A DNA stretch of 62,247 nt, the filler included. It is 4 parts of 4 records of this genome, joined end to end, with 100 filler letters (N's around TTAATTAATTAA, not from the genome) between each part and the next. Parts side by side here need not be neighbours in the genome. Positions count along the whole stretch, not along the records: positions 25,416 to 47,864 come from DRR723986_7202; 3 more parts are not named here. One strand, 5' to 3'. The notes beneath the pieces were generated by a model, which made no database searches, had not been told where the DNA came from, and was given only the letters and a program-made list of their open reading frames with translations. Shown piece by piece: positions 20,501-41,321 of this stretch; position 1 is the first letter of the stretch; each line of letters begins with the position of its first letter. The position numbers were made by a program, and so were the translations under genes.

Positions 20501-20960
20501 GCGTTGGATCGATGAAGACAACTTCGATCTGCCGCGTCGGATCAGTCAGTGAGCTGATATCCTCCAGGAGCGTCTGGTAGTCCTCCACGCTCATGTCGAT
20601 AAAGATTATTTCGCTCGATTGAGCAGCACTGCCCACGCTCAGCTCAGCCTGCGGCTCCAACGTTTCATGGCCTGCTGAATCGCTCTGTTCTCGTGGTGCT
20701 TCGGTTGTGTTCTCTTCTGATGCGGCCCACTGTGCAAGGTCAACATCATTCCCAGTTGTTGATTCAACGGCTGCATCCGGTGGCTCTACCATCGGCACAG
20801 CGCTGTACAGAATTCGCTCCTCCAGCGCAATTGCATCTAGCCCGGCTTCACTTTGCGCCGGCGCAGCACTTCCCGCATCCGATGTACGTGGACGTTCACT
20901 TCGAAGGCAACGATCTAGCCGAGTGACGATTTTCCAAAGCAATTGTTGTTTGTCCCGCAT
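11565..20960 (-). CDS. Giant secreted multidomain adhesin (LEPR-XLL, DUF4347, LamG, beta-helix, C-type lectin/cadherin, RTX-like Ca-binding repeats, delta-60 propeller, cadherin-like repeats); 3' end truncated
   Basis: Planctomycete LEPRxLL-type motif 'LEERILYSA'; DUF4347 motif 'ALHVVSHGSEG...LLIYGCDLA...DVAASEDLTG'; LamG 'WHHVVATF...GKLDDVRIYSRAL'; GGxGxDxL nonapeptides; 'QPDGKILV...RYNSNGSLDTSF' repeats. The start could be 20960, 20981 or GTG 21035. Confidence 0.9.
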
Positions 20961-21535
20961 GAGTCGTACCCAGGAGTGCATAACGGTGGCGCAGTTGGGG
21001 CTATGTAAGTCTTGCACGGGAATTGCACCCGCCACCGATTAGCGACTCTATGCCATTGCTAACGAGAAAGTAAACGTCCCGCATTCGTTAGGACGTAGCA
21101 TGTTTGCGTTTTGCACCGGATGCACAAGCTAGAGGCTGCGGCTAGGCGCAAAAGCCGGTGGACACAATAACGTGTTAAGGAACAATCGCGCCGCGGTCCT
21201 TAGGCATCCTCGAAAGTAGGGTATTGGCCGAACCCGTAAGTTCGGCTTTCGGACACACCAGCCCTAGAATGCTACTAGCCGGAAGACAACCGCTTGTGGC
21301 AACTGCGGATAGCCGCAACCAAACCACACCAAAGCGGTGATTGGCACGCGAACAGAACCAGTTCTTCCTAGTCCGCTTTTCATCCGAGTTCACGCGGAGC
21401 AACGTGCCCAGCAATCACTAAATTGCGACGGGAGAAGGTGCGCGGCTGGGGAATTGAAGTTGTCCTTCACTCACGACGACCGCAGCATGGAAGTGCTGTC
21501 TGTGAAAGCGATACTTTTGCCGCCTTGGATGCAAG

Positions 21536-22543
21536 CTATTTCAGCACAAACGTCGCTACGACTGGATAATGATCACTCAAATCGACTTCGCGAGGCGCCA
21601 ACTGCAGCCTGTTGTCCCAGTGAGCTTGCCCATCTGGGCGACCGCGAACAACGGCGCGGTCCAAAATTCGAATATCCCGGAAAACCCAATCTCTTCCCGG
21701 CCCGTCCTCGATCATACTCTGACTAGCATAGATCCGATCAAACTGTTTGTTGACGATCAGATGCGTTCGAGCGGTCGGATCTTTCGCCTTCGCCAAGAGA
21801 TCAACCATGGTCGGGTCATCACCTACGATAGCTTGCACATCGCCGTTCAATTCTCCTACTGAATGCTCAGAATTCATATCCCCCAGTATGATCACATCCT
21901 GCCCTCGCCCAAGCGGCAACTCTAGCCACTTGCGAGCAAGTTTCGCCTGTTTGACGCGCAAGTCTTCTTTTTCGGCTCGTGCCCGCAGGTGAACATTCAA
22001 CACTGAAAGTGGGCTTTCAACATCCGACCAACGAAACCCGCCACACAGATGTTTCGAGATGTTGTAGTACTGCCGGCTGTCATACATGGTTTTGCTTTGC
22101 TCAAACCTGCTGTAGCGAAACAAGCCGCCTTTGAAGAGAAACCCCACGTCCTGTTCGGTCGCAGTGTCGCGGCCATTGATGAAAGCATAGCGATAACTCT
22201 TGCCAAGTTTCTTCAGCTCAACTCTCAAAGCAGCCAATGAATCGGCGTCTTCGATTTCTTGCAAAGCGACTATGCTTGGCTCTTCAGAAGCGATTACTTG
22301 AGCAACCCCCTGCAACCGAGCCTGCCAATACTCCCTGGTCGGCGCTGACTGCTCCTTGGCAAGTTCCGACCGGTTGTCAGGCGTGAAATCGTCATAGAAC
22401 CATTCGACGTTCCACGTCATAACCTTCAGCGATGTCGGGGCGGGGTCGTAGGGTTGTGCCATCGACGAGGAGCTCGACAAACATACAAATGATCCAACCA
22501 ATAAGATCAAACACTCTCTTAGTATTGAATTGAGCAGACGCAT
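21536..22543 (-). CDS. Secreted endonuclease/exonuclease/phosphatase (EEP) family protein
   Basis: Signal peptide; motifs MTWNVEW, ALQEIE, NVHL, ILGDMN, FDRIY, SDHYPV. Confidence 0.88.
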   Translation of the reverse strand: MRLLNSILRECLILLVGSFVCLSSSSSMAQPYDPAPTSLKVMTWNVEWFYDDFTPDNRSELAKEQSAPTREYWQARLQGVAQVIASEEPSIVALQEIEDADSLAALRVELKKLGKSYRYAFINGRDTATEQDVGFLFKGGLFRYSRFEQSKTMYDSRQYYNISKHLCGGFRWSDVESPLSVLNVHLRARAEKEDLRVKQAKLARKWLELPLGRGQDVIILGDMNSEHSVGELNGDVQAIVGDDPTMVDLLAKAKDPTARTHLIVNKQFDRIYASQSMIEDGPGRDWVFRDIRILDRAVVRGRPDGQAHWDNRLQLAPREVDLSDHYPVVATFVLK

Positions 22544-22649
22544 CGCATTCGTTCCGATTTCTGGTGGCAGCTTAATGATTTCCAGCTAGTAGAACATTAC
22601 CGAGATTCCTGGCAAGTCGTCAGGCTTTCGTGAGGCTTATCCAGACACT

Positions 22650-23558
22650 CTACGAAGATGATATCTTCGGGAACCACAGCGGAACCGTTGCCTTGTAGCG
22701 GGCAAACGAATCGCCGAATCTCTCGGCCAAGTCACGCTCTTCTGCGGGCCTGACGAGAACGTGCCATCCTACACAACACAACACGGACAGGATGACGACC
22801 ATCGGACTACCCAGGAGCAAGCCGATGGCGATCCCCTGCCAGAGGCCTGCAATCGCCATCGGATTGCGGACAAATCGATACGGTCCCGTAACAACTAGTT
22901 GAGGTGCCGCGTCGGTGGGCAGCGGCGTTCCCTTCCCAGCCGTCGCCATCGTAAAGCCACTCCATAGGCCCAGTGCGGACGCTAAAAGCAGCAGGAGAAT
23001 TGGCCAGACCGCCCGAATAGCAAACTGCGGAATATTGACGAGTTGTTCAACTGATGCGATCGTCTTCGGCAAGATGTACAGAAAGTAGGTCCAGAAGATG
23101 CATATCTGAACAACGGTCGTCAGCCGTGCATTCCAAACCGATCGCTCGACGGCGCGGAACGCTCTAATGGAATGGGAACTGTCCTGCGTTGCGAAAATGC
23201 TGCATGCAATGTAGTTAGCAAAGAGCATCGTGCTCATTAGGCCAGATGCCAACCAGGCTTCCCCGGTCAGACTGCTCAACGCAACACAATACAGCGTCGG
23301 ATAAACGGCCAAGAGTGCGGTTGCTTTGACAAGCGTCAGGGACATTCTTGCCCGCATCAGCATTGCTACCGCAGCGGATAACGAACAACCCGCGAGGGCT
23401 GCATCGGGGACGATGAACGCCCCGAAAAAATCATCATCAAAACTCGCTGGTTTGAAGTGGTCGACCAGTATTGGGAACATGTAGAGCAATAGCCACCAAG
23501 CAGCAATTGCAACGAACTGCGTTGAATAAAATCCCGCAAACAGAATTCGCGGTCGCAT
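22650..23558 (-). CDS. Isoprenylcysteine carboxyl-/phospholipid methyltransferase (ICMT/PEMT) family membrane protein with an extra N-terminal TM domain
   Basis: 'GKGTPLP...LVVTGPYRFVRNPM...EERDLAERFGDSFARYKATVPLW'. ATG 23558 is preferred because the TTG at 23603 lies in the upstream terminator tail. Confidence 0.82.
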   Translation of the reverse strand: MRPRILFAGFYSTQFVAIAAWWLLLYMFPILVDHFKPASFDDDFFGAFIVPDAALAGCSLSAAVAMLMRARMSLTLVKATALLAVYPTLYCVALSSLTGEAWLASGLMSTMLFANYIACSIFATQDSSHSIRAFRAVERSVWNARLTTVVQICIFWTYFLYILPKTIASVEQLVNIPQFAIRAVWPILLLLLASALGLWSGFTMATAGKGTPLPTDAAPQLVVTGPYRFVRNPMAIAGLWQGIAIGLLLGSPMVVILSVLCCVGWHVLVRPAEERDLAERFGDSFARYKATVPLWFPKISSS

Positions 23559-23601
23559 GTCGTGTGAAGGTCTGCTCAATTGACCAAGCAAATCAAAGTA
23601 C

Positions 23602-23640
23602 AAAAAGAAAGCGTCACCGAAACAGGTTCGGCGACGCTTT
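23602..23640 (-). terminator. Rho-independent terminator
   Basis: Minus strand AAAGCGTCGCCGAA-cctgt-TTCGGTGACGCTTT-CTTTTT: 14-bp stem with one G.U pair, directly after the 23671 stop. Confidence 0.85.
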
Positions 23641-23670
23641 GAAAATCAATGCAAAGAGTTGATGCTAATC

Positions 23671-25315
23671 TTAGTAGCCGCCATCGCCTCCGTAGCCGCC
23701 CATCCCACCATCACCGCCGGCAGGCTGTGATGGCGTGCTCTCGGCTGCTTCCCGTTCATCACTGAAGTTGTACGTACGGTACAGGAAGAGGTCATCCAGC
23801 TCGGAAGAAAACTCAAGATGCCCGTCTTGATGCAAGATCAGCATCTCGCCAATCGCGGACATCGGGTCATCTCGCGAATAGTTGTCGAGAGGTATACCGC
23901 CCAGGACGTCGACTACCATTCCACCACGAGTCATCTCGTAGTCTTCCTTTGCTTTGATCACTCTGCTGCTAGGAACGATGACTTCTGCATCGAATTCTTC
24001 GTTCAGTGCCGAGCCGCGTTGAACTTTGTCATACCGGTTTGCAAACTTGGCTCCCCCCATCGTTGGATCGAACTGAGTCGCAACAACGGATGCCGATACC
24101 TCTTGGAAACGCGGTACATATCGTGTCTTAGAGAGGTATTTCCCTGGCTTGGCTGTCACACTTCCAAGAAATGTTTCCGAAGCACTGCAGACTCGGAATG
24201 CTGGACTTGGTTCGCTCCAGGCGGTCTTGAGAGGTGTCCGCTCAACGTCAACCGCATCTGGATCATCCGCACCGTCTGCGGCGCGGAGTTTTTGCACCCG
24301 TTCCCAAACGGCGCTTTCCAGGCTACTCGGATCAGGATCCTGAATTTTGGAATCCGATGGATAGTTCGGATCCAACATCACCAGTCGCAGACGGTAACGA
24401 TAGACTTTAGCGATATCTCGAGTGCTCAACATGTCGTAGCACCGAACCATTTTGTGAGTTGGTGGTAACGCACCAGGTGACGCTACTGCTCCGCCGCCGT
24501 ATCCACCACCATAACCACCACCGTAGCCCTCGCCACCGTAGCCGCCATCACCTTCGCCATATCCGCCACCATAACCTCCGTCGCCTTCACCCATTCCAGG
24601 GCCGCCCATGCCGGGTCCCCCCATGCCAGGCCCACCCATGCCGGGTCCCCCCATGCCAGGGCCACCACCGCCGTACATTCCTTCTCCACCACCATACATT
24701 CCTCCGCCAGCGGCGGCACCTTGTCCGGGCGTCATTGGAGCATCCGCGTCCCCCTCATCCTCGGTCTTCGCCTTTTTTGGTTTAGGCGGTCGGTATGCCC
24801 AAGTCCAAGCAATGTCTGGGTGTTTGGACGATTCGTGGTACGAGCGAACCAAAATCGGAGGAATTGGCATCGTGATGTAAACATCTCGATTTGCTCCGCT
24901 CACAACGTCTGCAATCGGTCCTGCTAGAGGAGGTTCCTTTTCGTTCGTTCTCGGCAAACGTGCCGCCCATTTTTGGGTTCGCTGGTAATCATACTGAGTC
25001 CTAAAGTCGGGCAGGGCTTTCCATTCGTTCTCAGCAATGTCCCGGGTAGGATCTGCGGTAACATCAACCCGTTGCAGTTCGAATCCGCGATACTGCGGTG
25101 TATCTCTTCGTGGATCGATGATTCCGGTATTCGCAAAGGCTTCTTCGTAGCTTTTTACCATTTCAGCATGGGGAACCAGAGCGGTTATCGTATTGAACAT
25201 AATCGGTCGCGACCCAAGCTTAGTGCTCCGCCCAGACTTCCGATCACCGCTATTTAGTCCGCCGTCTGCTCCGCCACCAGCTCCGCCCATCCCGGGCCCC
25301 ATACCCATCCCGGGC
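23671..25315 (-). CDS. Planctomycete-type hypothetical protein with Gly/Met/Tyr low-complexity tracts; 5' end truncated
   Basis: Open frame up to the contig edge; GGPGM and GGYG tracts alternate with globular segments (e.g. YRYRLRLVMLDPNYP). Confidence 0.75.
24591..24665. repeat. 15-bp coding tandem repeat (GGPGM x5)
   Basis: Alternating CCATGCCAGG... and CCATGCCGGG... 15-mers encode (GGPGM)n on the minus strand. Confidence 0.85.
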
Positions 25316-25415
25316 NNNNNNNNNNNNNNNNNNNNNNNNNNNNNNNNNNNNNNNNNNNNTTAATTAATTAANNNNNNNNNNNNNNNNNNNNNNNNNNNNN
25401 NNNNNNNNNNNNNNN
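25316..25415. other. Artificial contig spacer
   Basis: N44-TTAATTAATTAA-N44. Confidence 0.99.
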
Positions 25416-25532
25416 CCCCCGCCAATAAGACCCGAAAGCGTCGCCTCCAAGGGTCTGGAGCCCGGTCGCATGGGCAGGGCGCGCAACAGCGGCGGCGGCA
25501 AGGGCGAGGAAGTGGCGGCGGGTCAGGGGCAT
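25416..25532 (-). CDS. apbE: Probable FAD:protein FMN transferase ApbE, N-terminal 39 codons only (Tat-type signal)
   Basis: Not in the ORF track. Translates as MPLTRRHFLALAAAAVARPAHATGLQTLGGDAFGSYWRG: a twin-arginine signal, then an ApbE-like 'G.AFG(T/S).W' start. Lies 3 nt after the nqrF stop, the usual apbE position. Confidence 0.65.
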
Positions 25533-25535
25533 GGG

Positions 25536-26750
25536 TCAGCTCGCAAAATCGTCGAAGAAGATGGCATCCGGCTCGACCCCGAGGTCGTCCAGCATGGTGA
25601 TCACCGCCCGCATCATCAGGGGCGGACCGCAGAGATAGTAGTCGCAGGCATCGGGCGCAGGGTGGTTGCCCAGATAGGCCCGCAAGGCGACGTCATGGAT
25701 AAAGCCGGTCTCACCGGTCCAGCCATCTTCGGCCTGCGGATCAGACAGGGCGACGGTCCAACTGAAATTCGGGTGCGTTGCGGCCAGCGCCTTGAACTCT
25801 TCATCATAGAACAGGTCCGACCGGCTGCGTGCGCCGTAGAAATAGGAGATACGCCGTGGTGTGCCGGTCGCAGTCAGTTGTTCATGTGCGATGGCACGCA
25901 AGGGGGCCATTCCAACACCGCCGCCGATCAGCACGATCTCTCGGTCAGAGGGGCGCACGCGGAAGGTGCCGTAAGGGCCAGCCAACGCCAGACGGTCGCC
26001 GGATTTCAGCCCGAAGAGGTAGGACGACACCACGCCGGGCGGTACACCGGGCTTGCCCACGGGCGGCAGGGCAAGGCGGATGTTGAACACGACCTTGCCT
26101 GCGTCTTCTGGCCGATTCGCAATGGAATAGGCGCGCGAGACGGGTTCGGGGCTGCGGGCGGACAGGGATCGCAGGCCGCGACGATCCCAGATGCTTGCAA
26201 AATCGCCTGCATCGACCTTGGCAAAATCCAACGCATAGGCGGGGGCTGTCAGTTGCCCGTATTCCCCGGCGATGAAATCGAAATCGGCCCCGTCGGGCAA
26301 TGCCAGAACCAGTTCCTTTATCAGCGGCGCGAGAGAGTGGTTAGACAGAACCTCGCAGTCATAGCTTTCCGCCGACAGGATATCGTCGGGCACCTGCACG
26401 GCCATCGGTCCGCGCAACACGGTCTGACAGGCCAGCCGTTCGCCCCTGTCCGTTGCCGGTTTGCCAAGCGTTCCTGTTTCGGTCGCGAGCGGCGATCCGG
26501 GGTTTTCGACAGTCACCCGACACAGCCCGCATGTTCCCGCCCCGGCGCAGCCCGACGGCATTGGGATGCCGCCTGCCTTCAGCGCATCCAGCAGCTTCTC
26601 ACCTGTTCGGGCCTGAACCTCTCGCCGTCCGTTCACCATCAAGCGCACAGGGCGAGATGGCACCAGCACCGCCCGCGCGGCCATGACGCCAAGCGCCAGC
26701 GCCATGACCAGTGCAACCAGAAGAAGGGTGGCGAGCAGGATCTGGGTCAT
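25536..26750 (-). CDS. nqrF: NADH:quinone reductase (Na+-NQR) subunit F
   Basis: N-terminal TM helix; 2Fe-2S '[10 protein letters not shown]...RLACQ'; FAD motif 'RAYSIAN'; NAD motif '[10 protein letters not shown]'; 'YYLCGPP...FFDDF'. The ATG at 26750 overlaps the nqrE stop (ATGA). Confidence 0.92.
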
Positions 26751-27349
26751 GGCGCGGCCATCGTGGCAAAGGCGGTGAAGGCCATGGACATGAGGCCCGT
26801 GACGATGAAGGTCATCCCTAGCCCGCGCAGACCGGCGGGCATGTCGGCATAGGCCAGCCTCTCGCGGATCGCGGCCAAAGCTACAATGGCCAAGGCCCAT
26901 CCCAACCCGCTGCCGAAGCCGAAGACGATGGACTCCCCGAACCCGTAAGACCGTTCCGCCATGAACAGGCTACCGCCCAGAATGGCGCAATTGACCGTGA
27001 TCAACGGCAGGTAGATGCCAAGCGCCGCGTAAAGCGCCGGTGCAAAGCGATCCAGCACCATTTCCAGCACCTGCACCATGGCCGCAATGACCCCGATGAA
27101 TGCGATAAGCCTGAGGAATGTCAGGTCCACATCGCCCGCACCGATCCACCCCCACGCCCCCGGTGCCAGCAGCACATTCAGGATCAACTGGTTGACCGGC
27201 ACCGTGATCGTCAGGATCACGATAATCGCAACCCCAAGGCCAAGCGCCGTTTCCACCCGTTTCGACACCGCCAGAAAAGTACACACGCCCAGAAAGAAGC
27301 TGAGGATCAGGTTGTCGGCAAAGACCGCGCGAAGGAATAGGTCGGTCAT
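26747..27349 (-). CDS. nqrE: Na+-NQR subunit E
   Basis: '[13 protein letters not shown]', '[11 protein letters not shown]' and '[12 protein letters not shown]' with both Fe-S cysteines. Confidence 0.93.
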
Positions 27350-27999
27350 GACAACGCCTCCTCCCGATCCACATGGGTTGTTGCAGGCTCTGCCTGTTCC
27401 ACCCGCCAGCTTCGCAGCGCCCAGACCAGAAGGCCAAGCAGCATGAACGCAGACGGCGCCAGCAGCATGAAGCCGAAGGGCTGATACCAGCCGCCATTGG
27501 CCACGGTCGGGAAAATGGAGATGCCAAAGAGCGTGCCGAAGCCCAGAAGCTCCCGCACGAAGGCGATAACCATCAGGATTGCGGAGTACCCCGCGCCGTT
27601 GCCCAGCGCGTCAAGGATGCTGGGCCCGACAGGGTTCGACATGGCAAACGCCTCGGCCCGGCCAAGAACGATACAGTTGGTCACGATCAGCGACACGAAG
27701 ATCGAAAGCCGCTGACTGATCGCATAGGCATAGGCCTGAAGGATCAGGTCCGCGACGATGACCATGGCGGCGATGATGGTGATTTGCAGGATCAGCCGGA
27801 TCTGCGCAGGGATATGACGGCGGATCAGCGAGATGACCGCGTTCGAGGCAACCAGAACGGCCGTCAGCGCGAAGCTCATGGTCAGGGCGGTTGTCATCGA
27901 CGTGGTGACCGCGAGCGCCGAGCAGATACCCAGAATCTGTACCGTCACCGGGTTGTCGCGCAACAGCGGGTCGAGAAGCGGTTTCAGCGCGGCCCTCAT
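27346..27999 (-). CDS. nqrD: Na+-NQR subunit D
   Basis: '[17 protein letters not shown]', '[16 protein letters not shown]', 'LLAPSAF'. Start ATG 27999 is coupled to the nqrC stop. Confidence 0.93.
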
Positions 28000-28769
28000 C
28001 ACAGATCCCCACTGCGCAAGGCGTCCAGAACCGGGCCAAAGCCAAGCGGCCCGATCCAGAAACGGATCATGTTCTGCACCCCGTTGGAACTGCGGGTCGC
28101 ACCGGTGATTGCATCGACCTCGTATTCCGTTGTGCCCCCACCCCGGACCACGGCAACGCGGATGTCTCCCACCTCGTCCATCAGCTGCGTTCCCGGCCAT
28201 TGCGCCAGCCAGCCGGGCGTCTGGATCGTGGCCCCAAGCCCCGGCGTTTCGCCCTGCTCGGTTATTGCGAGGCCCACCACGGTGTTCAGGTCAGGCCCAA
28301 GCGCCAGATATCCCCGGATTGTCGATTGATAGCCCTGCCCGTAGACCGGCAGGATCACCAGGGCCAGATCACGCCCGTCACGGGCCATGAAGATCTGTTG
28401 CAGATCGGGCCGGGTGCCGATGCCCGCAATGTCGTCGTCAGGGGTCAGCTCCGTCACTTGGGCAGGGTCAACCGCGTCTGCCAGCGACAGATCACGCAGA
28501 TCCACGGTCAGCACCTCCAGGCTGTCGATCCCGCTGCCCGGCAACACCTCGGCCAGTCCCGGCGTCTCGGCAATCAGTGCCTCCAGCCGTGCGCGACGTT
28601 CGGCTTCTCGGTTGGCGTCTAGCCTCGGCCCAAGCAGGACCGCCGCGCTGGACACCGCAAGCGCCGCCACGAAGGACACGAGAAACGCCATGCTCAGCGT
28701 TTTGCCTCGGCTGTCATTCGGGGCCGCAAGCAGGCGTTGCCACAGGGTTATCGGGTTCAAATCAGGCAT
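27999..28769 (-). CDS. nqrC: Na+-NQR subunit C (FMN-binding)
   Basis: N-terminal TM helix; 'ILPVYGQG', 'GETPGLG' and the flavinylation motif 'VDAITGATRSS'. Confidence 0.9.
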   Translation of the reverse strand: MPDLNPITLWQRLLAAPNDSRGKTLSMAFLVSFVAALAVSSAAVLLGPRLDANREAERRARLEALIAETPGLAEVLPGSGIDSLEVLTVDLRDLSLADAVDPAQVTELTPDDDIAGIGTRPDLQQIFMARDGRDLALVILPVYGQGYQSTIRGYLALGPDLNTVVGLAITEQGETPGLGATIQTPGWLAQWPGTQLMDEVGDIRVAVVRGGGTTEYEVDAITGATRSSNGVQNMIRFWIGPLGFGPVLDALRSGDL

Positions 28770-29547
28770 GTCGCCGCCCCCTTGCATGGCGCTTCATCGC
28801 AAGCGCCGCATAGTCGATTGTCGGCGCAAAGACCTGCGCCAGAAGCACCGCGAAGACGGTGGCGCGTTCCGCCCCCGCCAGCCCCTCGGCCCCTGCCAGA
28901 AGAGCGATCAATGCGCCGCCAAGCAGGCCGTAGACCAGCCGCGCGGGCGACGTTGTCGGCGCGGTCACCGGGTCGGCCAGCAACAGCAGCCCGAAGCCCG
29001 CGCCCCCGGCCAGCAAAGCGGTTTCCAAAGGCGCACCTATCAGGGCCATCGTTCCAAGCATGCCAACGATACTCCCGAACAACGCCGGTAGCGGCAGAAT
29101 GCCGAGCGACAGTAGCAGCAGGGCCGAAATGCCCGAGGCAAGCAACATTGTGGTTTCCGACCCCTGCCCTGCGCCACCCGGCCAAGTCAGGAACACCATC
29201 GCCAGCGCCACCGGAGCGGCCCCAACCACGTTGCGACCCCACCCGCCGAAGATGAGGTCGGCCAAAACGATGCCAAAGCTCGCCCCGAGCGCCAGTTGCA
29301 GCGGCGACAGACCCGACGGGGCCAGCACCGCCATCGACACCGCCAGCACCGCGCCCGTGGGTGACCATGGCACCCCGCGCTGCCTGCGGAACAGCAGCTG
29401 CCACAGCGACGCGACGGCCAGCACCGCGCCGATGCGCAACACGCCCTCGACCCCTTGTTCCACCAAGACGACGGCAGCAGGCGGTAGGAGGGCGGCAACC
29501 ATCGCCCACCCGATCATGTCCCGAGACCAGAGCCCGCGCGCTGTCAT
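28762..29547 (-). CDS. nqrB: Shortened NqrB/RnfD-family membrane subunit (261 aa) lacking the flavinylation loop
   Basis: 'IFGGWGRN', 'ADPVTAP' and 'FAPTID' match NqrB/RnfD, and the operon position fits. There is no (S/T)GAT motif and the protein is far shorter than canonical NqrB (~400 aa). Confidence 0.8.
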   Translation of the reverse strand: MTARGLWSRDMIGWAMVAALLPPAAVVLVEQGVEGVLRIGAVLAVASLWQLLFRRQRGVPWSPTGAVLAVSMAVLAPSGLSPLQLALGASFGIVLADLIFGGWGRNVVGAAPVALAMVFLTWPGGAGQGSETTMLLASGISALLLLSLGILPLPALFGSIVGMLGTMALIGAPLETALLAGGAGFGLLLLADPVTAPTTSPARLVYGLLGGALIALLAGAEGLAGAERATVFAVLLAQVFAPTIDYAALAMKRHARGRRHA

Positions 29548-30767
29548 GCTGCCTCCAACCTGTCCAGAACGGCCCGAAGGCGAACCGCGAAGTCTTCCAT
29601 GCCGCCGGACAGATAGGTGGCAAGGGCCATGTCATCTTCCAGCAACCCCAGAACCCCCATCCGTTCGGCCTGCTCTGCTTCGCCCACGCTAAGCGCCCGC
29701 AAAAGCGCCACGGCTGACAAATCAGGCCCAAGCGATCGGGCCAAGGCGGCATTGGGGATCATCGCCGAGCGTTTGAGGTTCGTTGACCTGCGCGTCGCAT
29801 GGGCAGGGACAGCCCGGGGGATCAGGGTGATTTGCAGATGCCTGCGCCGCAGGAAACGGCTCTCTTGCCCGGACGGCACCGGGCCGGATAGCACGCGATA
29901 GCCGGTGCCGTTGGCCTCTTGCCCTGACAGCGCCTCGATATCCACCCCGATAGGCAGGCGCAGCAGACGCGGATCCGCTGCCGCCGGGCCAGACAGGGAC
30001 ACCACCCTATCTGCAGGCAAGGCCCCCTCGCGCAGCAATTGCCCAAGCGCCAGCACATCGGCATAGCCGATTTGCCAGACCGGATGGGACGCTGATGCCG
30101 GGCATAGTCGTTCCACATGCACACCGGGCATCCCCGCCGGGTGCGGGCCCTTGAAACCAGCCACATGAATCCGGTCGGTGATCCTTGCCAGTTCCGGCCC
30201 CGGGGCCTGACAGACAAAGACCGGGCCGGGCCCCAGATGGCAGAGCGCCTGAACGCCGGCATTGAAATTCCCCGCCTCGGCCCGGATCAGCGGGGCCGGA
30301 TCAACGGCGCCCGGTTCGGTTGCCATGGCGGTGACCACGATGGCAGAGGGAGTTTCGTCCGGTAACGGCACATTCCCGAAGGGCCTGCGCAGCATCGCAG
30401 TCCATAACCCGCTGCTCAGCATCAGGTGGCGCACGCCTTCGGCACTGTCGGATTTCGCAACATCGAACCGGCGCGCCGCACCCGCGCCACGCCGGATCAC
30501 GATCCGGGACACTTGCCGTCGGGCACCGATAACGATGTTCATTACCGTGCCGCTGACCGGACTGACCACAACCCTTTCGGGCAGCGCGTGATCGTGCAGA
30601 ACGGCCTGTCCCGCGACCACGGCATCGCCTTCCGCAACCACCGCGCGCAGCTTCATCCCCGGATAGTCTGCTCCGATCAGGCCCACGCAATCGGGTAGCG
30701 TCGCCATCCCGATCTCCTGCCGGGGGGCACCGTCATCGGGCAGTCTGACACCTTTGACACGAGGCAA
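29544..30767 (-). CDS. nqrA: Divergent NqrA-family subunit
   Basis: 'DYPGMK...VAEGDAV..GQ...SPVSGTV', 'SGLWTAMLRRPFG', 'GPHPAG..GVH', 'LLRAL..G..E.AE.MG.L.L.EDD.AL'. TTG start preceded by a GGAG RBS. Confidence 0.85.
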   Translation of the reverse strand: MPRVKGVRLPDDGAPRQEIGMATLPDCVGLIGADYPGMKLRAVVAEGDAVVAGQAVLHDHALPERVVVSPVSGTVMNIVIGARRQVSRIVIRRGAGAARRFDVAKSDSAEGVRHLMLSSGLWTAMLRRPFGNVPLPDETPSAIVVTAMATEPGAVDPAPLIRAEAGNFNAGVQALCHLGPGPVFVCQAPGPELARITDRIHVAGFKGPHPAGMPGVHVERLCPASASHPVWQIGYADVLALGQLLREGALPADRVVSLSGPAAADPRLLRLPIGVDIEALSGQEANGTGYRVLSGPVPSGQESRFLRRRHLQITLIPRAVPAHATRRSTNLKRSAMIPNAALARSLGPDLSAVALLRALSVGEAEQAERMGVLGLLEDDMALATYLSGGMEDFAVRLRAVLDRLEAA

Positions 30768-30837
30768 ATCGGGATACTCCAGCTGGATCGGACAGGGCCG
30801 CTTCGATCCACCTTACCGTGTATCGACCCGCCCCGGA

Positions 30838-30851
30838 TTGACTGAGGTCAA
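30838..30851. promoter_or_regulatory. FNR/FnrL (Crp-Fnr family) box serving two divergent promoters
   Basis: Perfect palindrome TTGAC-tgag-GTCAA (consensus TTGAY-N4-RTCAA). A -10-like hexamer lies exactly 22 nt away on each side: CATACT 30874-30879 (+) and TAAGGT 30815-30810 (-). Confidence 0.85.
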
Positions 30852-30915
30852 TGCCGGTCAAGTTGCATGGGCGCATACTCGGACAATCGCTGTTGCCGCC
30901 CCTAAGGAGACTGCC

Positions 30916-31989
30916 ATGAATTTCGCCCGCGCCAGCCTGCTGGCCCTACTCACCGCCTTCTCGCCCTCCGCCCTGATTGCTCAGGAGGGCGGCACCGCTG
31001 CCGCTGTTCAGGCCTGGGTGCAATCGGCCCATGGCGACGCCGCCGCCGAGGCTTTTGCCCATTGGAGCGGCGAGGACGAAGTGCCCGCCGCCTGTGCTGT
31101 CTGTCATTCCGGGGCGGGGTTCCGGGATTTTCACGGATTGGACGGAACCGCCGCTGGCGTCATCGACCAGACCATCGCGCCGGGGGGCGTGGTGGATTGC
31201 GACACCTGCCACACGGATGGCGTGTCCGCGATTACCGAGATCACTTTCCCCTCTGGCGTGACAATGACCGCATTGCCCAATGCGGGCACTTGCCTGACCT
31301 GCCATCAGGGCCGGTCGTCTGGCCCGACGCTGCAAGGGCAACTGGCCGGAATGGATCCCGACACCCCGAATGACGAACTGCGCTTCGTGAACCCGCATTA
31401 TGCGGCCGCAGGTGCAACAACCTTCGGGTCAGAGGTTGCGGGGCTATATGAATACATGGGCCAGACCTATGACGGCGCCTTCAGCCATACCGGCCCCATC
31501 ACCACCTGTTCTTCCTGCCACGATCCGCATTCGCTGGAAGTGGATACAACAGGCTGCGTCAGCTGCCATGAAAACGCCGATCCCGCCACGATCCGCATCT
31601 CGCGCATCGACTATGACGGCGATGGCGACATCACCGAAGGCATCTCTGCCGAGGTCGAAGGCCTGCGCCTGATTCTGGCCGCCGAGATCGCCGCCTATGC
31701 GGAAACCGTTGCAGGCGCGCCAATCCTGTATGAACTGCACACCTACCCGTATTTCTTCAACGACCTGAACGGAAATGGCGGCATCGACGATGGCGAGGCG
31801 ATCTACCCGAACCAATACGCAAGCTGGACGCCACGCCTTCTGGCTGCCGCCTACAACTTCCAGTTCGTGACGCGCGATCCGGGCGGGTATGCGCATAACC
31901 CGAACTACACATTGCAGGCGATCCATGACAGCATCATGGACCTTGCCGAAGCCTCGGGCCGCCCGGCACCTGCGATCAACCGGCCCTGA
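30916..31989 (+). CDS. Periplasmic pentaheme cytochrome c
   Basis: AAGGAG RBS; Sec signal (..SALIA|QE); five CxxCH motifs (CAVCH, CDTCH, CLTCH, CSSCH, CVSCH); two Dx[DN]G[DN]G loops. Confidence 0.92.
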   Translation: MNFARASLLALLTAFSPSALIAQEGGTAAAVQAWVQSAHGDAAAEAFAHWSGEDEVPAACAVCHSGAGFRDFHGLDGTAAGVIDQTIAPGGVVDCDTCHTDGVSAITEITFPSGVTMTALPNAGTCLTCHQGRSSGPTLQGQLAGMDPDTPNDELRFVNPHYAAAGATTFGSEVAGLYEYMGQTYDGAFSHTGPITTCSSCHDPHSLEVDTTGCVSCHENADPATIRISRIDYDGDGDITEGISAEVEGLRLILAAEIAAYAETVAGAPILYELHTYPYFFNDLNGNGGIDDGEAIYPNQYASWTPRLLAAAYNFQFVTRDPGGYAHNPNYTLQAIHDSIMDLAEASGRPAPAINRP

Positions 31990-32010
31990 ATCGGCCCGGA
32001 CCCGGCGGCG

Positions 32011-32664
32011 TCACAAGCCGCCCGCCGGGTCGATCAGCCCCTCGCGCAGCGCATAGGCGATCAGTTGCGCGACGGAATGCACGTCGAGCTTTTGCATCAG
32101 GCTGGTGCGGTGGCGATCCACGGTCTTGGCACTGATCCCGAGCGTTTCGGCCATTTCCTTGTTCGACTGGCCCGAGACAATCAGGTTCAGCGTCTGGCGT
32201 TCCCGCGCTGTCAGTTCCGGCACTTTCGGTGCGTCTTCCAGCATCGCGACGAAGCTTTCCGCGATGTGACGCCGCCCGCGCAGGATGTTGGGCAATTGCC
32301 GGTACAGCTCTGCATTGTCCTCGCCTTTGGAAAACAGGCCATCCACGCCGCTTGACACCAGTTCGCTGATCTTGCCCACGGACATGACGCCGGTCAAAAT
32401 CACGATTTTGGTGTCAGGCGACCAGCGGCGCGCTTCCAGCAGCACCTCCAACCCGCCAGCATGAGGCATCTGAACATCCAGCAGCAATAGATGCGGGCGG
32501 TGCTGGCGCAGCGCGGCGATGGCCTGCAAGCCGTCCGCCGCCTCGGCCACCACGCCGATCCCGTCTGTTTCCACCATTCCGGGGGTTTCCAGCGCGGTGC
32601 GCAACCCTGCCCGCACGATGGCATGATCGTCTGCAATAACAGCGTGAAATCTTGGCTCGGGCAA
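32011..32664 (-). CDS. NarL/FixJ-family response regulator (REC + LuxR HTH)
   Basis: 'ADDHAIVRAGL', 'LLDVQMP', 'LTARERQTL...GQSNKEMA..LGIS.KTV..HR..LMQKL'. Confidence 0.93.
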   Translation of the reverse strand: MPEPRFHAVIADDHAIVRAGLRTALETPGMVETDGIGVVAEAADGLQAIAALRQHRPHLLLLDVQMPHAGGLEVLLEARRWSPDTKIVILTGVMSVGKISELVSSGVDGLFSKGEDNAELYRQLPNILRGRRHIAESFVAMLEDAPKVPELTARERQTLNLIVSGQSNKEMAETLGISAKTVDRHRTSLMQKLDVHSVAQLIAYALREGLIDPAGGL

Positions 32665-32702
32665 TCTAAGCTCCCCTCATTATCTTTCGAAAAGGCAATC
32701 TG

Positions 32703-34700
32703 TTGCGGGCGATCCTATCATTCCTTTTGGTCTGTGCGACCCTGCTTTTCACCACCCTGCCCGGAGGTGCGCAAAGCCTGCCGGTGATGGAGGTCGATCC
32801 GGCCTATTCCTCGCCCAATATCGCGCCTGCCATGCGCTTTGCCCGCGATGTGGGGCAGCCCATTGCCGATATCGTCACCGCCTATATGGACGGCGCGCTG
32901 AGCGGCGACTTTGAGGCCGTCACCGCCCCTGCCGCCCCCTATCAGCCGATTTGGGCGCTGACCGAACTGCTCAACATCGCGCCCGATGAAGGCCGCCCGC
33001 CGGACACCTGGATTCTGGCGTCGGACACCCACGGCCTGGTAGCGCTGGACGTGTTCCTCGTGCGCGACGGCGGCGGGACCGAGCAATTGCTGGCCCATGA
33101 TATTCGTGACCCTTTTGATCCGTCAGATTTCAGCGCCACACGGCTGAGCAGCGCGCCGGTGGAACTTTCTGCCGGAGAACGGGCGCTTTTGATGGTGCGG
33201 ATGACTTATGGCGCAACGGATCTGGTGGATCTGAGCCTTGAGACCCCCGCCGACCATCAGGCCCGCACCTTCACCGATGGCATGAAGCTGGCGGGGTTCT
33301 ACGCCTTTCTGGCCTCCTGCATCCTGTTCTTCGCGGTCTTCAGCGCCACCATGCGCAGCGACGTGGGTGCGGCCTATGCGGGGTTGTTGGCGCTCGGGCT
33401 GATCTTCATCGCTTATATCGACATTCTGCTGTTCCGCTTCCTCTACCCCACCCACCCGACATGGCACTTGCCGGTTGGACTGTGCCTGCTCTACGCGCTC
33501 TGCGCCGCGGGGTTTGCCACCGCCGCCCTGTCGCTGATCCGGTTCACGAAGAAGCCAAGGTTGCGACGGGCCATTCAGGGACTGGCCGTCTTCTCGATCA
33601 TCGGCATTGCGATGGTCTTCGTTCTGCCACCCGAGGTCATGGCGCCGGCCTCCTACATCCTCTTGGTTCTGATGCTGGGGTCGCATCTCTTGGCGGGATT
33701 TCAATGGGACATGATCACCGGCGCACGCAGGCCGGTCTTTCGCGTTGTGGTTCTTGTGGCCTTCGTCGGGCTTGGCCTGCTGATCGCGCTGGCGCTGGCA
33801 CGGCTTGGATCTGTCGACATTCCGATGAGTTGGGCCATCAAGGCGATTTACGCCGTCATCGCCTTTGGCACCATGTCGGGCCTGTCCGTGGGGCTGATCG
33901 ACTTGCGCCGGGAACATGCCACGGCATTGGAACGGGAAATGGTGGCCCTTCAGAAAGAGGCGGAAACCACCCGCGAATTGCTGGAAGCCGAACGCAATTA
34001 CACCCATGCCCGCGATCTGGCAGACCGGCGGCGGCAGCAACTGGCGACCATGTCCCACGACATAAGGCAACCGTTGGCTTCCCTGCGCATGACGATGGAG
34101 ACCATGACCCGCGACCAGTCTCCGGACATCCGCGAGCGTCTGTCAGAGGCGTTCGACTACATGCACGATCTGGCGCTCGGTCAGTTGGAGGACAGCCGCC
34201 CCGATGACCCGCCCGACACCGCGTCGCCACCGCCGCCGCCAGAGACCGACACAGAGCCCTACGCCCTGTCGCTGATCCTGAACACCGTGGCGCAAATGTT
34301 CCGCGAAGAGGCCGTGTCCAAGGGGGTGCGTCTGCGTGTCGTGGCCTCTTCCCTGCCTGTCACCGTGCCACCGCTGATCCTGATGCGGATCGTGTCAAAC
34401 CTCGTGTCCAACGCGGTGAAATACACCACCGAAGGCGCGGTTCTGGCGGGGGTTCGGCGCAAGCTGGACGGGGCCAGCATCGACGTACTGGACACCGGCA
34501 CAGGCATGACGGCCGAAGAATTGGAGAGCTTCCAGCAGGCTTGGTCCCAAGGCGAGACCAGCAGCGGCCACGGGCTTGGCCTGTCGATCTGTTACGAGCT
34601 GGCCGCGCAACACGGGCTGGACCTGACGGTCGCCTCCTCCCCCGGAATGGGCACGGTTTTTTCGCTACGGATTCCCGCGTCCTGCGTGGTAAAAGGATAG
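32703..34700 (+). CDS. 7TM-DISM sensor histidine kinase
   Basis: Signal peptide, periplasmic DISMED2-like domain and 7 TM helices; H-box SHDIRQPL, N-box NLVSNAVKYT, DTGTGM, GHGLGL. Confidence 0.9.
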   Translation: MRAILSFLLVCATLLFTTLPGGAQSLPVMEVDPAYSSPNIAPAMRFARDVGQPIADIVTAYMDGALSGDFEAVTAPAAPYQPIWALTELLNIAPDEGRPPDTWILASDTHGLVALDVFLVRDGGGTEQLLAHDIRDPFDPSDFSATRLSSAPVELSAGERALLMVRMTYGATDLVDLSLETPADHQARTFTDGMKLAGFYAFLASCILFFAVFSATMRSDVGAAYAGLLALGLIFIAYIDILLFRFLYPTHPTWHLPVGLCLLYALCAAGFATAALSLIRFTKKPRLRRAIQGLAVFSIIGIAMVFVLPPEVMAPASYILLVLMLGSHLLAGFQWDMITGARRPVFRVVVLVAFVGLGLLIALALARLGSVDIPMSWAIKAIYAVIAFGTMSGLSVGLIDLRREHATALEREMVALQKEAETTRELLEAERNYTHARDLADRRRQQLATMSHDIRQPLASLRMTMETMTRDQSPDIRERLSEAFDYMHDLALGQLEDSRPDDPPDTASPPPPPETDTEPYALSLILNTVAQMFREEAVSKGVRLRVVASSLPVTVPPLILMRIVSNLVSNAVKYTTEGAVLAGVRRKLDGASIDVLDTGTGMTAEELESFQQAWSQGETSSGHGLGLSICYELAAQHGLDLTVASSPGMGTVFSLRIPASCVVKG

Positions 34701-34702
34701 CC

Positions 34703-35029
34703 ATGATGCGATTTCTGGTTCTGCTTTTCGTGCTGTTTCTCCCGCTCGCGGCCACGGCCCAAACCGAGGTAGATGGCGTTGGCCCCGTGACCGAGGGAGA
34801 GGTTGATGCCTTCGTCGTGGCAGATGAAAACCGCGACGGGATGCTCAGCTTTCCGGAGTTCCGCGAGTTTGTCCGCCAGATGGCGCGCAGCGGCCAGCCC
34901 ACGGCCCGGCTGATCCGCAACTTTGCCGCCTATCGCATTGCCTTTCGCCGCGTGGATCTGAACGAGGATGGCTTTGCCAGCCCCGCCGAACTGCGTAGCG
35001 CCGACGACGACTTTCGCGAAAACGGCTAG
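34703..35029 (+). CDS. Secreted two-EF-hand protein
   Basis: Signal peptide (..AATA|Q); EF loops DENRDGMLSFPE and DLNEDGFASPAE; starts 2 nt after the kinase stop. Confidence 0.85.
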   Translation: MMRFLVLLFVLFLPLAATAQTEVDGVGPVTEGEVDAFVVADENRDGMLSFPEFREFVRQMARSGQPTARLIRNFAAYRIAFRRVDLNEDGFASPAELRSADDDFRENG

Positions 35030-35042
35030 GTCTCCTGCCTGA

Positions 35043-35060
35043 TTGAGGTGTTCACCCCAT
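35043..35060. promoter_or_regulatory. 18-bp palindromic operator, copy 1 (TTGAGG-TGTTCA-CCCCAT)
   Basis: One of three copies; 67 nt upstream of ATG 35128. Confidence 0.65.
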
Positions 35061-35127
35061 GCCCCGGTGGGCAAGGGGCCCCCGTATCTGTGATCCCAGC
35101 TTCATCATGAAACAGGGACAGCCAATC

Positions 35128-35262
35128 ATGAACCGCCTTCTTCCCCTTACCGTCGCACTTGCCATTGCCGTGCTGCTGCCCGTCACCGCCGCCGTGACGC
35201 TTGCCGTGACCACGCCCGCTTCGGCGCTGGCCTTCGAGATCAGCGAAACACGGTCCAAATAG
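35128..35262 (+). CDS. 44-aa small hydrophobic/secreted peptide
   Basis: MNRLLPLTVALAIAVLLPVTAAVTLAVTTPASALAFEISETRSK; AGGGA RBS; GC-rich third codon positions; operator upstream. Confidence 0.55.
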   Translation: MNRLLPLTVALAIAVLLPVTAAVTLAVTTPASALAFEISETRSK

Positions 35263-35273
35263 GCAGCGTGCAA

Positions 35274-35291
35274 TTGGGGGATCGCCCTCAT
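35274..35291. promoter_or_regulatory. 18-bp palindromic operator, copy 2 (TTGGGG-GATCGC-CCTCAT)
   Basis: 64 nt upstream of ATG 35356; -10-like TACTTT lies 22 nt downstream. Confidence 0.72.
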
Positions 35292-35355
35292 CCAACGCTC
35301 CCGATGCGTCCACTACTTTCAGGTCAGACACCGCCCCAACCCGAAAGGCCCGACC

Positions 35356-35646
35356 ATGACGAGACTTATCCTTGCCGCCCTGCTGGCCCTGTCTGCCGGT
35401 TCGGCATTTGCCCAAACCGCTACCGCGCCGAACAACTATGTCGCCAATCCCGGCATTCCCATTGCCGATACCGGCCCGCGCTATTGCCCTGAACTGGCGG
35501 GCACGGAGCACCCGTTTCGAATTCGCTGCCCGTCCTGGCCTGACTACAGCAACGTCGCCATTGGAGCCCCTATCGGAATCCGTACCGGACAGGGCGTGGC
35601 GGGCGACAATCCCGGCGTTCAAATCGAGGAGGACAATCACGACTGA
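35356..35646 (+). CDS. Small secreted hypothetical protein (96 aa, two Cys)
   Basis: Clear Sec signal MTRLILAALLALSAGSAFA|Q; GAAAGG RBS; followed by its own terminator. Confidence 0.75.
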   Translation: MTRLILAALLALSAGSAFAQTATAPNNYVANPGIPIADTGPRYCPELAGTEHPFRIRCPSWPDYSNVAIGAPIGIRTGQGVAGDNPGVQIEEDNHD

Positions 35647-35673
35647 CCCAACCAAGCGCATTCGCGTCATGCA

Positions 35674-35703
35674 GCCCCGTCAGTGCTTCGCTGGCGGGGT
35701 TTT
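35674..35703 (+). terminator. Rho-independent terminator
   Basis: GCCCCGTCAG-tgcttcg-CTGGCGGGGT-TTT. Confidence 0.65.
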
Positions 35704-35723
35704 CCTTGGTCGTTCCTGCCCCA

Positions 35724-35741
35724 TTGGGGGATCGACCCCAT
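35724..35741. promoter_or_regulatory. 18-bp palindromic operator, copy 3 (TTGGGG-GATCGA-CCCCAT)
   Basis: 64 nt upstream of ATG 35806; -10-like TAGCCT lies 22 nt downstream. Confidence 0.72.
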
Positions 35742-35805
35742 CCGGCACGCGGCCCGAACGGGCTAGCCTGACAACAGCGTTTTCCCCAACCGAAAAGGCC
35801 CCAAG

Positions 35806-36174
35806 ATGCCCCGCCTGTCCCGCCGCCAGATCCTTTGCCTGCCCGCCCTTTTGTGGGCGTTGCCAGCACAGGCCGATCTTTTCCAGTCGCAATTGGCGAC
35901 CCGAACCGCTCAGGCGGCGCAGGCCGGGGTCACGCCGGGCACCTATCTGGGGCAATGGTCCGATGGCCGCGCGCTGCGCAACAGTGTCCGCGTGATCGGC
36001 CCCGACATGATCACCCTGCAACGGCAAGGCTATTCCACCCCGCCGGTGCCCTATCACCGCATTGCGCAGGACCGGTTCCAAAGCGGCAATGGAAACAGCC
36101 TGACGGTGATCACCGCGACGCGCCTGCGCTGGACCAATGCAGGCGGAACATCCGTAATCTACGAGCTGGAGTGA
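35806..36174 (+). CDS. Small exported hypothetical protein (Tat-like signal, beta-rich)
   Basis: MPRLSRRQIL...ALPAQA|D; AAAAGG RBS. Confidence 0.75.
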   Translation: MPRLSRRQILCLPALLWALPAQADLFQSQLATRTAQAAQAGVTPGTYLGQWSDGRALRNSVRVIGPDMITLQRQGYSTPPVPYHRIAQDRFQSGNGNSLTVITATRLRWTNAGGTSVIYELE

Positions 36175-41318: not shown

Positions 41319-41321
41319 CGC

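Follow-up and report, generated by a model that had tools for sequence, protein, structure and literature searches.

We describe here a variant of Na+-NQR (Na+-translocating NADH:quinone oxidoreductase) that is encoded, together with a divergently oriented gene for an exported pentaheme cytochrome c (hereafter Cyt5), on a stretch of DNA of 62,247 nucleotides, filler included (hereafter the window). The window consists of four contig pieces joined by linkers of the form N44-TTAATTAATTAA-N44 (at 11465-11564, 25316-25415 and 47865-47964), and the variant nqr locus forms the left end of the piece 25416-47864 (DRR723986_7202). Canonical Na+-NQR is regarded both as a quinone reductase and as an antibiotic target; its electrons run from NADH via the flavin adenine dinucleotide (FAD) and the 2Fe-2S centre of NqrF, the iron-sulphur (Fe-S) centre of NqrD/E and the flavin mononucleotide (FMN) of NqrC to the FMN of NqrB, and from there via riboflavin to quinone. 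According to a preliminary description of the window, the outward half of this wire has been kept and the return half dismantled, such that electrons on the FMN of NqrC might pass to the cytochrome.

All six subunits are encoded in one operon on the minus strand, in the order A-B-C-D-E-F, and the open reading frame (ORF) calls and family scans agree on this: nqrA (29544..30767; 407 aa, TTG start; Pfam NQRA_N, NQRA_2nd and NQRA_SLBB), a short nqrB (28762..29547; 261 aa, the NqrB/RnfD channel core according to family scans, alignment and model), nqrC (27999..28769; the membrane-anchored periplasmic FMN subunit, PF04205 FMN_bind, with an alternative upstream ATG at 28787), nqrD (27346..27999; NF006777), nqrE (26747..27349; TIGR01940) and nqrF (25536..26750; the NADH dehydrogenase subunit with FAD and 2Fe-2S, TIGR01941). 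The genes overlap as described before, by 4 nt at nqrA/B, D/E and E/F, by 1 nt at C/D and by 8 or 26 nt at B/C, depending on the nqrC start. The apbE-like gene reported to follow nqrF after 3 nt does have its ATG there (at 25532, 3 nt past the nqrF stop), but the contig junction ends the frame after 39 codons (25416..25532, minus strand), so that the window holds no more than a Tat-like leader and a few residues of this flavin transferase. As the same frame encodes a full ApbE in Nioella loci with an 88% identical NqrB (e.g. 316 aa in locus L006, 13016-13966; PF02424, 203.6 bits), we consider the stub to be the 5' end of apbE. On the operon's other side, 148 nt from the nqrA start and divergent from it, begins the gene for Cyt5 (30916..31989, plus strand; 357 aa, five CxxCH motifs, an N-terminal signal-like leader, and an NrfA/OcwA-like fold as discussed below). 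An FNR/FixK-type box, TTGACTGAGGTCAA (30838..30851), lies between the two divergent starts.

The subunits were typed by means of the NCBIfam equivalog cut-offs for Na+-NQR. NqrF (TIGR01941, 426.9 bits versus a cut-off of 295), NqrE (TIGR01940, 296.1 versus 247.55) and NqrD (NF006777, 297.3 versus 235) pass, whereas NqrA (305.9 versus 505), NqrC (184 versus 255) and above all NqrB (71.9 versus 414) remain below. An Rnf complex was considered and ruled out by the presence of NqrF and by the scores of NqrD and NqrE, which are of the nqr and not of the rnf type. In alignments to the solved Vibrio cholerae chains the ligands of the outward path are all found: Cys70/76/79/111 of the 2Fe-2S centre and the RAYS motif in NqrF (aligned to 8a1t_F), C29 and C112 in NqrD, and C26 and C120 in NqrE, i.e. 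all four intramembrane Fe-S cysteines of NqrD/E. D133 of NqrD and E95 of NqrE are kept as well. The flavinylated Thr of NqrC is kept in the motif D-A-I-T-G-A-T, which aligns to the V. cholerae site (Thr225, S/T-G-A-T) and of which G229, A230 and T231 are invariant in 32/32 sequences. NqrA has no equivalent of V. cholerae residues 327-365 (alignment to 7xk3_A). Judged by these residues, the NADH-oxidising, outward-conducting part of Na+-NQR (NqrF, NqrD/E and NqrC) is intact, and the earlier statements on the NqrF, NqrD/E and NqrC sites agree with the alignments.

The picture is different for NqrB. We aligned a profile of 16 short NqrBs to V. cholerae NqrB (Vc), whereby residues 39-129 of the short form correspond to Vc134-224 and residues 121-259 to Vc264-411. 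The first ~95 V. cholerae residues have no counterpart, and neither has the loop Vc225-263, which bears the FMN-carrying Thr236; moreover, no Ser or Thr is found among the invariant or near-invariant columns between positions 107 and 190 in the 16 sequences. The claim that the 261-aa NqrB has no flavinylation site is thereby corroborated. The structural model of the short NqrB is confident (predicted local distance difference test (pLDDT) 87.2) and resembles NqrB chains (TMq 0.79-0.80 over its own length) and RnfD (0.77), and according to that model the protein keeps the channel-like NqrB/RnfD core. In the sections of Hau et al. 2023 (PMC10643135) used here, ubiquinone is located at the NqrB rim in contact with F159, G141 and L138, the inhibitor 2-heptyl-4-hydroxyquinoline N-oxide (HQNO) occupies the same pocket (contacts F160 and L33), and both recruit the N-terminal amphiphilic helices. 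From the alignment, then, the FMN site and the N-terminal helices of the quinone/inhibitor pocket are lost from the short NqrB. With NqrD, NqrE and NqrF above their cut-offs, the FMN site of NqrC kept, and the FMN loop and part of the quinone pocket of NqrB gone, the notion of a preserved outward half and a dismantled return half holds at the level of the subunits.

One could nevertheless envisage that the complex is still an NADH:quinone oxidoreductase, in which the NqrC FMN dips into the vacated NqrB site and passes its electrons via riboflavin to quinone, with Cyt5 being no more than a co-regulated side branch or an unrelated neighbour. In the same sections of Hau et al. (PMC10643135) the riboflavin of NqrB is held by G198, N200, T162, N203, D346, A205 and F342. 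In the 16 short NqrBs, G104, N106 and D192 stand without exception at the positions of G198, N200 and D346, and because of this riboflavin and some inward path may be possible; for two-subunit Nqr/Rnf-like complexes it is proposed in the consulted part of Huang et al. 2024 (PMC11334425) that the flavin of the NqrC-like subunit samples the non-covalent flavin site of an NqrB-like domain that has no flavinylation Thr either. The equivalent of T162 is a Thr in 7/16 sequences. Against continued quinone reduction stand the equivalent of N203, which is an Asn in 0/16, and the absence of the ~95 N-terminal residues that form the quinone/HQNO pocket. The retention of NqrA also fits that alternative, as do fusions of NqrA to the short NqrB, from which it can be argued that NqrA still docks on the stripped subunit. 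Such natural fusions (P0032, P0070, P0076, P0082 and P0109; 663-692 aa) occur in several lineages, e.g. in Marinicella sp., and locus L116 (7498-9810) carries a fusion ORF of 771 aa.

The short NqrB is not a peculiarity of the window. Among its homologs 29/31 clusters are 250-262 aa long at identities of 37-99%, the other two being fragments, and the distant clusters consist mostly of metagenome proteins. When 1.84 billion representative proteins were searched by profile, the highest ranks went to ~90 single-block proteins of 240-290 aa and to four NqrA-NqrB fusions of 671-692 aa, and two-block canonical NqrB/RnfD proteins (~300-510 aa) first appear near 143 bits. A strain-specific deletion, one of the scenarios by which the preliminary description would have been undone, is therefore ruled out: homologs with as little as 37% identity still have the short form. 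To sample the genomic context, relatives were collected in two scans with one genome per species (207 and 110 genomes with relatives), of which the best 80 of each were taken; 156 distinct loci were left after removal of duplicates. Most of these loci belong to Rhodobacterales and Hyphomicrobiales (Devosia, Maritalea, Hoeflea, Martelella, Rhizobium and others), and a few originate from Burkholderiales and from gammaproteobacterial metagenome-assembled genomes (MAGs). That the operon would be a decaying or non-functional remnant is hardly credible. Scores below the curated cut-offs, as seen for NqrA, NqrB and NqrC, are what one would expect of a remnant, yet the frames are intact and overlapping, the length of NqrB is conserved to 37% identity and its model is confident, and the full gene set recurs across the 156 species loci.

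The operon moreover has a constant tail. In the 126 loci in which nqrF is complete and the sequence runs on for 1.8 kb or more, nqrF is followed by apbE in 116, an nqrM-like gene (51-58 aa, one helix and a Cys-rich tail) is found in 118, and a gene for a CBS-pair protein closes the operon in all 126, which makes the CBS protein a constant member of the variant operon. It is a stand-alone protein of ~130-180 aa (e.g. L006 14118-14513, L015 14051-14584 and L042 14168-14608), and in Nioella the apbE, nqrM and CBS-pair genes are translationally coupled. We know of no comparable CBS-pair component of canonical NQR; the protein may be a nucleotide-sensing regulatory subunit that gates the complex according to the adenine-nucleotide level.

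The variant operon coexists with other NADH-oxidising complexes, a point on which the preliminary description had called for a check. NuoD of complex I was found in 5/5 complete genomes tested, 4/5 of which have no other NqrB/RnfD gene. In an even set of 151 genomes from the Nioella family, 21 encode a short NqrB and 22 an NqrB of the canonical type, and a second NqrB is present in none of the 21. A Maritimibacter MAG (G005), by contrast, carries a full canonical nqrABCDEF set beside the variant, with all six canonical subunits above the curated cut-offs; the two sets are 26% identical in B, 31% in C, 34% in A, 47% in F and 52-54% in D/E. These identities indicate that the variant is an old paralogous lineage and not a replacement in progress, and the presence of a canonical NQR beside it in one genome counts against the variant being one more quinone reductase.

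What connects the variant to periplasmic hemes is in the first place its genome context. Cyt5 adjoins 111 of the 156 loci: it is adjacent and divergent upstream in 102, adjacent upstream on the same strand in five and adjacent downstream in four. Another 3-6-heme cytochrome of the c3 type (PF14537) lies at or near the same place in seven further loci, so that some periplasmic multiheme cytochrome gene accompanies the operon in 118/156. No cytochrome gene is found in 18 loci despite sufficient room, the contig is too short to tell in 19, and one locus with an nqrA-nqrB fusion was left unclassed. The genome-wide distribution follows the same tendency. A Cyt5 profile recovers exactly one Cyt5, at the nqr locus, in 5/5 complete control genomes, and in the 151-genome sample at least 18 of the 21 short-NqrB genomes encode Cyt5 as well; of the others, one has a broken Cyt5, one a weak match only and two have none. 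In the broken copy (G024:C1:2677853-2678482), which lies beside an intact short nqrB, the gene is in two pieces and contains an in-frame TGA; this may represent a recent loss or a sequencing error. The linkage of the short NqrB to the cytochrome, the absence of which would have spoken against the preliminary description, is thus a property of the majority of the loci.

A more direct connection is provided by gene fusions. In a Bauldia MAG, NqrC is joined via a Pro/Ala-rich linker of ~45 residues to a tetraheme c3 domain (FMN_bind at 218-311, Cytochrom_c3_2 (PF14537) at 369-450), and NqrC and tetraheme c3 domains occur together in 7/9 protein clusters found with that domain (387-396 aa; P0205-P0211). 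Locus L123 (fusion ORF 9585-10955) has its operon in two halves that diverge from each other, nqrA-B-C::cyt and nqrD-E-F-apbE-CBS. From the fusion of NqrC to a tetraheme domain it can be argued that the FMN of NqrC donates electrons to c-type hemes in this lineage.

The second type of evidence concerns the other partners of Cyt5. Nine of the 151 genomes encode a Cyt5 without a short NqrB, and in the six of these that were examined (6/6) the cytochrome gene is divergent from a gene for a ~500-aa protein with the domains Ferric_reduct (PF01794), FAD_binding_8 and NAD_binding_1, i.e. with the architecture of NOX and ferric reductases. A scan with this type of Cyt5 yielded relatives in 396 species genomes; among the 80 closest loci, which were inspected, the NOX-like gene is adjacent and divergent in 78, near in one and beyond the reach of the data in one because of a contig edge. 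The NOX-paired proteins constitute a sister group of the nqr-paired Cyt5. Bacterial oxidoreductases with NOX/ferric-reductase domains are single-protein carriers from NAD(P)H to the outside; they share no homology with NQR except for the FNR-like FAD/NAD module, are absent from the window, and in these 78 loci occupy the very place that the nqr operon has beside Cyt5. As an observation in its own right, at least 84 alphaproteobacterial genomes (one Halomonadaceae; L167-L172 and L175-L254) contain the two-gene module of a NOX-like reductase and a Cyt5-family cytochrome, and our searches retrieved no published description of it. In the loci examined, neither the NOX-like/Cyt5 pair nor the variant nqr module is accompanied by any other conserved redox gene.

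As for Cyt5 itself, the five CxxCH motifs are invariant in 35/35 sequences, the Pfam matches are weak and to c7/c3 families, and a sequence search against the PDB gave nothing below E 0.04. A model built from the 35 sequences (pLDDT 76.7) gave no Foldseek match in the PDB at E <= 0.001, the best being OcwA at E 1.1. With VIA-align, which does not depend on Foldseek, the six best chains form one group (Z 8.4-9.7; next row Z 6.2) that comprises NrfA (1qdb, 6v0a and 1oah), octaheme nitrite reductase, OcwA and an undecaheme S-layer cytochrome, all aligned over 222-251 residues and spanning positions 16-349 of the model. The match to NrfA 1qdb_A has Z 9.7 at a root-mean-square deviation of 5.2 A over 244 residues, and that to OcwA has Z 9.4; as VIA-align Z values below about 8 are common, we take the fold match as moderate evidence. 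An hhalign comparison with E. coli NrfA yielded one local match (310-340 to 376-406, probability 53%, E 1.3e-4) in which H327 of Cyt5 is set on H393 of NrfA, and a protein atlas has a cluster of the NrfA family at rank 22 (0.90), to be read as a lead only. Like NrfA, OcwA and the octaheme reductases, Cyt5 combines five c-type hemes with subsequent long C-terminal helices. It differs from NrfA in that it has no CxxCK active-site motif, all five motifs being CxxCH, has no match to Pfam Cytochrom_C552 (PF02335) and, with its 357 aa, is shorter. Besides the five CxxCH motifs, H39, H161, H191, H205 and H327 are invariant in both Cyt5 groups, and H49 varies between H and Y. In number, the five extra histidines would fit five bis-His hemes and equally an NrfA-like set of four distal ligands and one catalytic histidine. 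The modelled NrfA/OcwA-like fold fits a Cyt5 that reduces a periplasmic substrate itself.

Taken together, we consider it reasonably probable from these comparisons that the variant represents an NQR-derived, membrane-bound NADH:periplasmic-cytochrome-c oxidoreductase. Electrons from NADH would pass the FAD and 2Fe-2S centre of NqrF and the Fe-S centre of NqrD/E to reach the FMN of NqrC on the periplasmic side, and would leave from there to the hemes of Cyt5 instead of going back via NqrB to ubiquinone. Maturation would be taken care of by apbE and nqrM, which are present in relatives. Since no other redox gene is conserved beside its partners, Cyt5 would either act as a periplasmic reductase itself or feed a general periplasmic cytochrome pool. 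The hand-over from NqrC-FMN to Cyt5, the loss of quinone reduction and the outward direction of the flow are the steps that we infer. The strongest argument for the outward direction, and for Cyt5 being the purpose of the export, is that two unrelated NAD(P)H exporters serve one cytochrome family.

Several observations weigh against this interpretation, next to the riboflavin ligands already mentioned. The domain that is fused to NqrC is a tetraheme domain of the c3 type and not Cyt5, and a direct contact between NqrC and Cyt5 is for that reason suggested by analogy only. NqrA is retained though it would have no role in a wire that only leads outward. The adjacency of Cyt5 is in part inherited by descent, by which the loci do not count as independent. 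Furthermore, 18/156 loci are without a nearby cytochrome, and the Cyt5 profile found no Cyt5 anywhere in 5/5 genomes tested whose locus has none adjacent; Cyt5 is therefore not an obligate partner everywhere, and the variant complex can work without it. About eight of the 18 loci show one island-like arrangement (in Rhizobium, Brucella pseudogrignonensis, Kaistia and Shinella), with Usp and DUF1269 genes upstream, genes for a nitroreductase-family protein, an Na/Ca exchanger and a serine recombinase downstream, and an identical spacing of the variant operon (L129, L130, L138, L151-L153 and L165), and these may go back to a single event, i.e. to one horizontally moved island. The cytochrome-free loci and genomes also fit continued quinone reduction. 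That alternative, however, does not account for the linkage to cytochromes, for the fusions of NqrC to a cytochrome domain or for the NOX-like partner of Cyt5, and we regard it as unlikely.

The flow might also be reversed, from a reduced periplasmic cytochrome via NqrC, NqrD/E and NqrF to NAD+, driven by the sodium or proton gradient in the way of Rnf in nitrogen fixers. Rnf-type complexes are described as reversible in the excerpts used of PMC12174285 and of Reyes-Prieto 2014. The equivalents of NqrB D346 and D397, both kept in the short NqrB, and NqrD-D133 and NqrE-E95 are acidic residues that we take to be linked to Na+ handling, and their retention would suit a gradient-driven complex; under an outward flow, too, the retained NqrB core may still conduct Na+. 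On the other hand, enzymes of the NOX/ferric-reductase type run from NAD(P)H outward, and it is these that stand beside the sister group of Cyt5. Moreover, neither module has a conserved low-potential donor system for the periplasm next to it, and most of the hosts are heterotrophs, aerobic or facultative, that possess complex I. Together these points render a reversed flow improbable, more so than continued quinone reduction.

If NADH:cytochrome c oxidoreduction is accepted as the function, one may speculate further that the variant constitutes a new respiratory coupling site, i.e. an Na+- (or H+-) pumping NADH:cytochrome c oxidoreductase that bypasses quinone and the bc1 complex, in which Cyt5 is an NrfA-like terminal reductase and in which other Alphaproteobacteria feed the same enzyme via the NOX-like reductase. 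We put this forward tentatively, as a scenario that more probably fails than holds in this full form. If true, the substrate of Cyt5 could be e.g. an N-oxide, sulfite or chelated Fe(III), and Cyt5 would characterise a family of periplasmic reductase systems that are driven by NAD(P)H and independent of quinone.

With respect to regulation, the preliminary description had the cytochrome gene and the nqr operon diverge from one FNR-type box and viewed the module as anaerobic. The box is present at the position given above, but by itself it is within chance expectation: a search for TTGAY-N4-RTCAA yielded two perfect boxes in the window against 0.49 expected, and 10/100 shuffles gave at least two. 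The second perfect box, TTGACCGTGATCAA at 26991-27004, lies inside nqrE and is probably due to chance. The weight of the intergenic box derives from its recurrence at the same place in relatives. It is found between Cyt5 and nqrA in 15/70 related loci (28.8 kb, ~0.5 expected), ten times at the same locus offset, as compared to 35 such boxes in all 1.28 Mb of locus sequence. The 15 loci include 5/5 Nioella, and Histidinibacterium, Pelagibacterium, Martelella, Rhodovulum and a few others. Among the 55 intergenic regions that lack it, k-mer and perfect-palindrome counts revealed no common motif, and a promoter consensus scan detected no sigma-70-like site in the nqrA-Cyt5 intergenic region. The data thus suggest that induction at low oxygen is plausible for the Nioella group and the organism of the window; with 55/70 loci lacking the box, such control does not extend to the module in general. 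Downstream of Cyt5 and convergent with it lies a gene for a LuxR/NarL-type response regulator (32011..32664, minus strand; Pfam Response_reg and GerE), followed in divergent orientation by a gene for a 7TMR-DISM sensor histidine kinase (32703..34700, plus strand; Pfam HATPase_c, HisKA and 7TMR-DISM_7TM). Among the relatives, this regulator and kinase adjoin Cyt5 in the five Nioella loci only.

On the contig that carries the nqr locus, at 40821-46005 (minus strand), lies a cluster of the heterotetrameric sarcosine-oxidase type (soxB-, soxA- and soxG-like), accompanied by genes for a LysR/GcvA-type regulator, a desaturase-like protein and a Rieske-type monooxygenase-like protein; this is ordinary methylated-amine catabolism without relation to the nqr variant. 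The preceding piece (11565-25315) has a G+C content of 0.52-0.56, as against ~0.61-0.67 in the nqr piece (profiled over 26000-35999), and the two pieces are perhaps neither natural neighbours nor derived from one organism. That preceding piece contains an ORF of 545 aa (23671-25308, minus strand) whose two ends and middle bear long repeats rich in Gly, Met, Pro and Tyr (GGPGMGG..., GYGGG...) and for which no Pfam family was found.

The wider relevance of the variant is that a large natural NQR lineage (at least 156 species loci, for the most part from marine Rhodobacterales and Hyphomicrobiales) seems to have undergone a rewiring by which NADH electrons would be delivered directly to periplasmic hemes. 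If so, ordinary aerobic or facultative heterotrophs would possess a route from NADH to the periplasm that involves neither quinone nor bc1. The variant can also be viewed as a natural 'half enzyme' by which to establish which electron-transfer steps drive Na+ translocation, because the steps that are held responsible in current models, those of the NqrB FMN and riboflavin, would be missing from it. For the Cyt5 family (396 species genomes by pattern scan), being served by two unrelated NAD(P)H-driven exporters narrows the function to accepting exported reducing power. The variant lineage is widespread and apparently undescribed: our literature searches retrieved no NQR with a short NqrB and a cytochrome partner, with the proviso that the gene-cluster lists of Méheust et al. 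2021 may include such operons as NQR, and the consulted part of Reyes-Prieto et al. 2014 mentions no such variant. In the part of Méheust et al. 2021 (PMC8238504) used here NQR is defined as an NqrF next to a flavinylation gene, and by that rule the variant operon would count as an ordinary NQR.

A comparison with known systems makes clear what sets the variant apart. In common with canonical Na+-NQR, the variant has its six homologous subunits encoded in an identical order with apbE and nqrM behind them, and it keeps the ligands of FAD, of the two Fe-S centres and of the NqrC FMN as well as the channel fold of NqrB. Unlike the canonical enzyme, it has an NqrB that is devoid of the Thr236 loop and the ~95 N-terminal residues and an NqrA that is devoid of the stretch Vc327-365, its operon is closed by the CBS-pair gene, and a multiheme cytochrome gene is attached to most of its loci. 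The available sections of Méheust et al. 2021 (PMC8238504) mention RnfG proteins with multiheme domains in Christensenellales. The same sections describe two-subunit NQR/RNF-like systems in Actinobacteria and the Candidate Phyla Radiation, in which an NqrB-like domain fused to an NAD-binding domain is combined with an NqrC-like protein, and a follow-up study in mSystems in 2024 (PMC11334425) indicates, in the part used, that the two-subunit system is also without the NqrB threonine. These systems resemble the variant in that their NqrB-like part has no flavinylation Thr and in that a one-way transfer, from NAD(P)H to an extracytosolic flavin, has been proposed for them. They differ in having no NqrA, D, E or F and in having the NqrB-like domain as the sole transmembrane path, whereas the variant keeps the NqrD/E path and a stripped NqrB; on the basis of the sections of Méheust et al. 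2021 that describe them, identity of the variant with the published two-subunit system is ruled out. The nearest experimental precedent is the Rnf complex of Methanosarcina acetivorans, which according to the excerpt used of PMC12174285 is encoded together with a multiheme cytochrome, MmcA, that takes electrons away on the outer face. That complex is archaeal and ferredoxin-driven, has a full RnfD and no NqrF, and delivers to methanophenazine or extracellular compounds, and MmcA is, as far as compared, unrelated to Cyt5.

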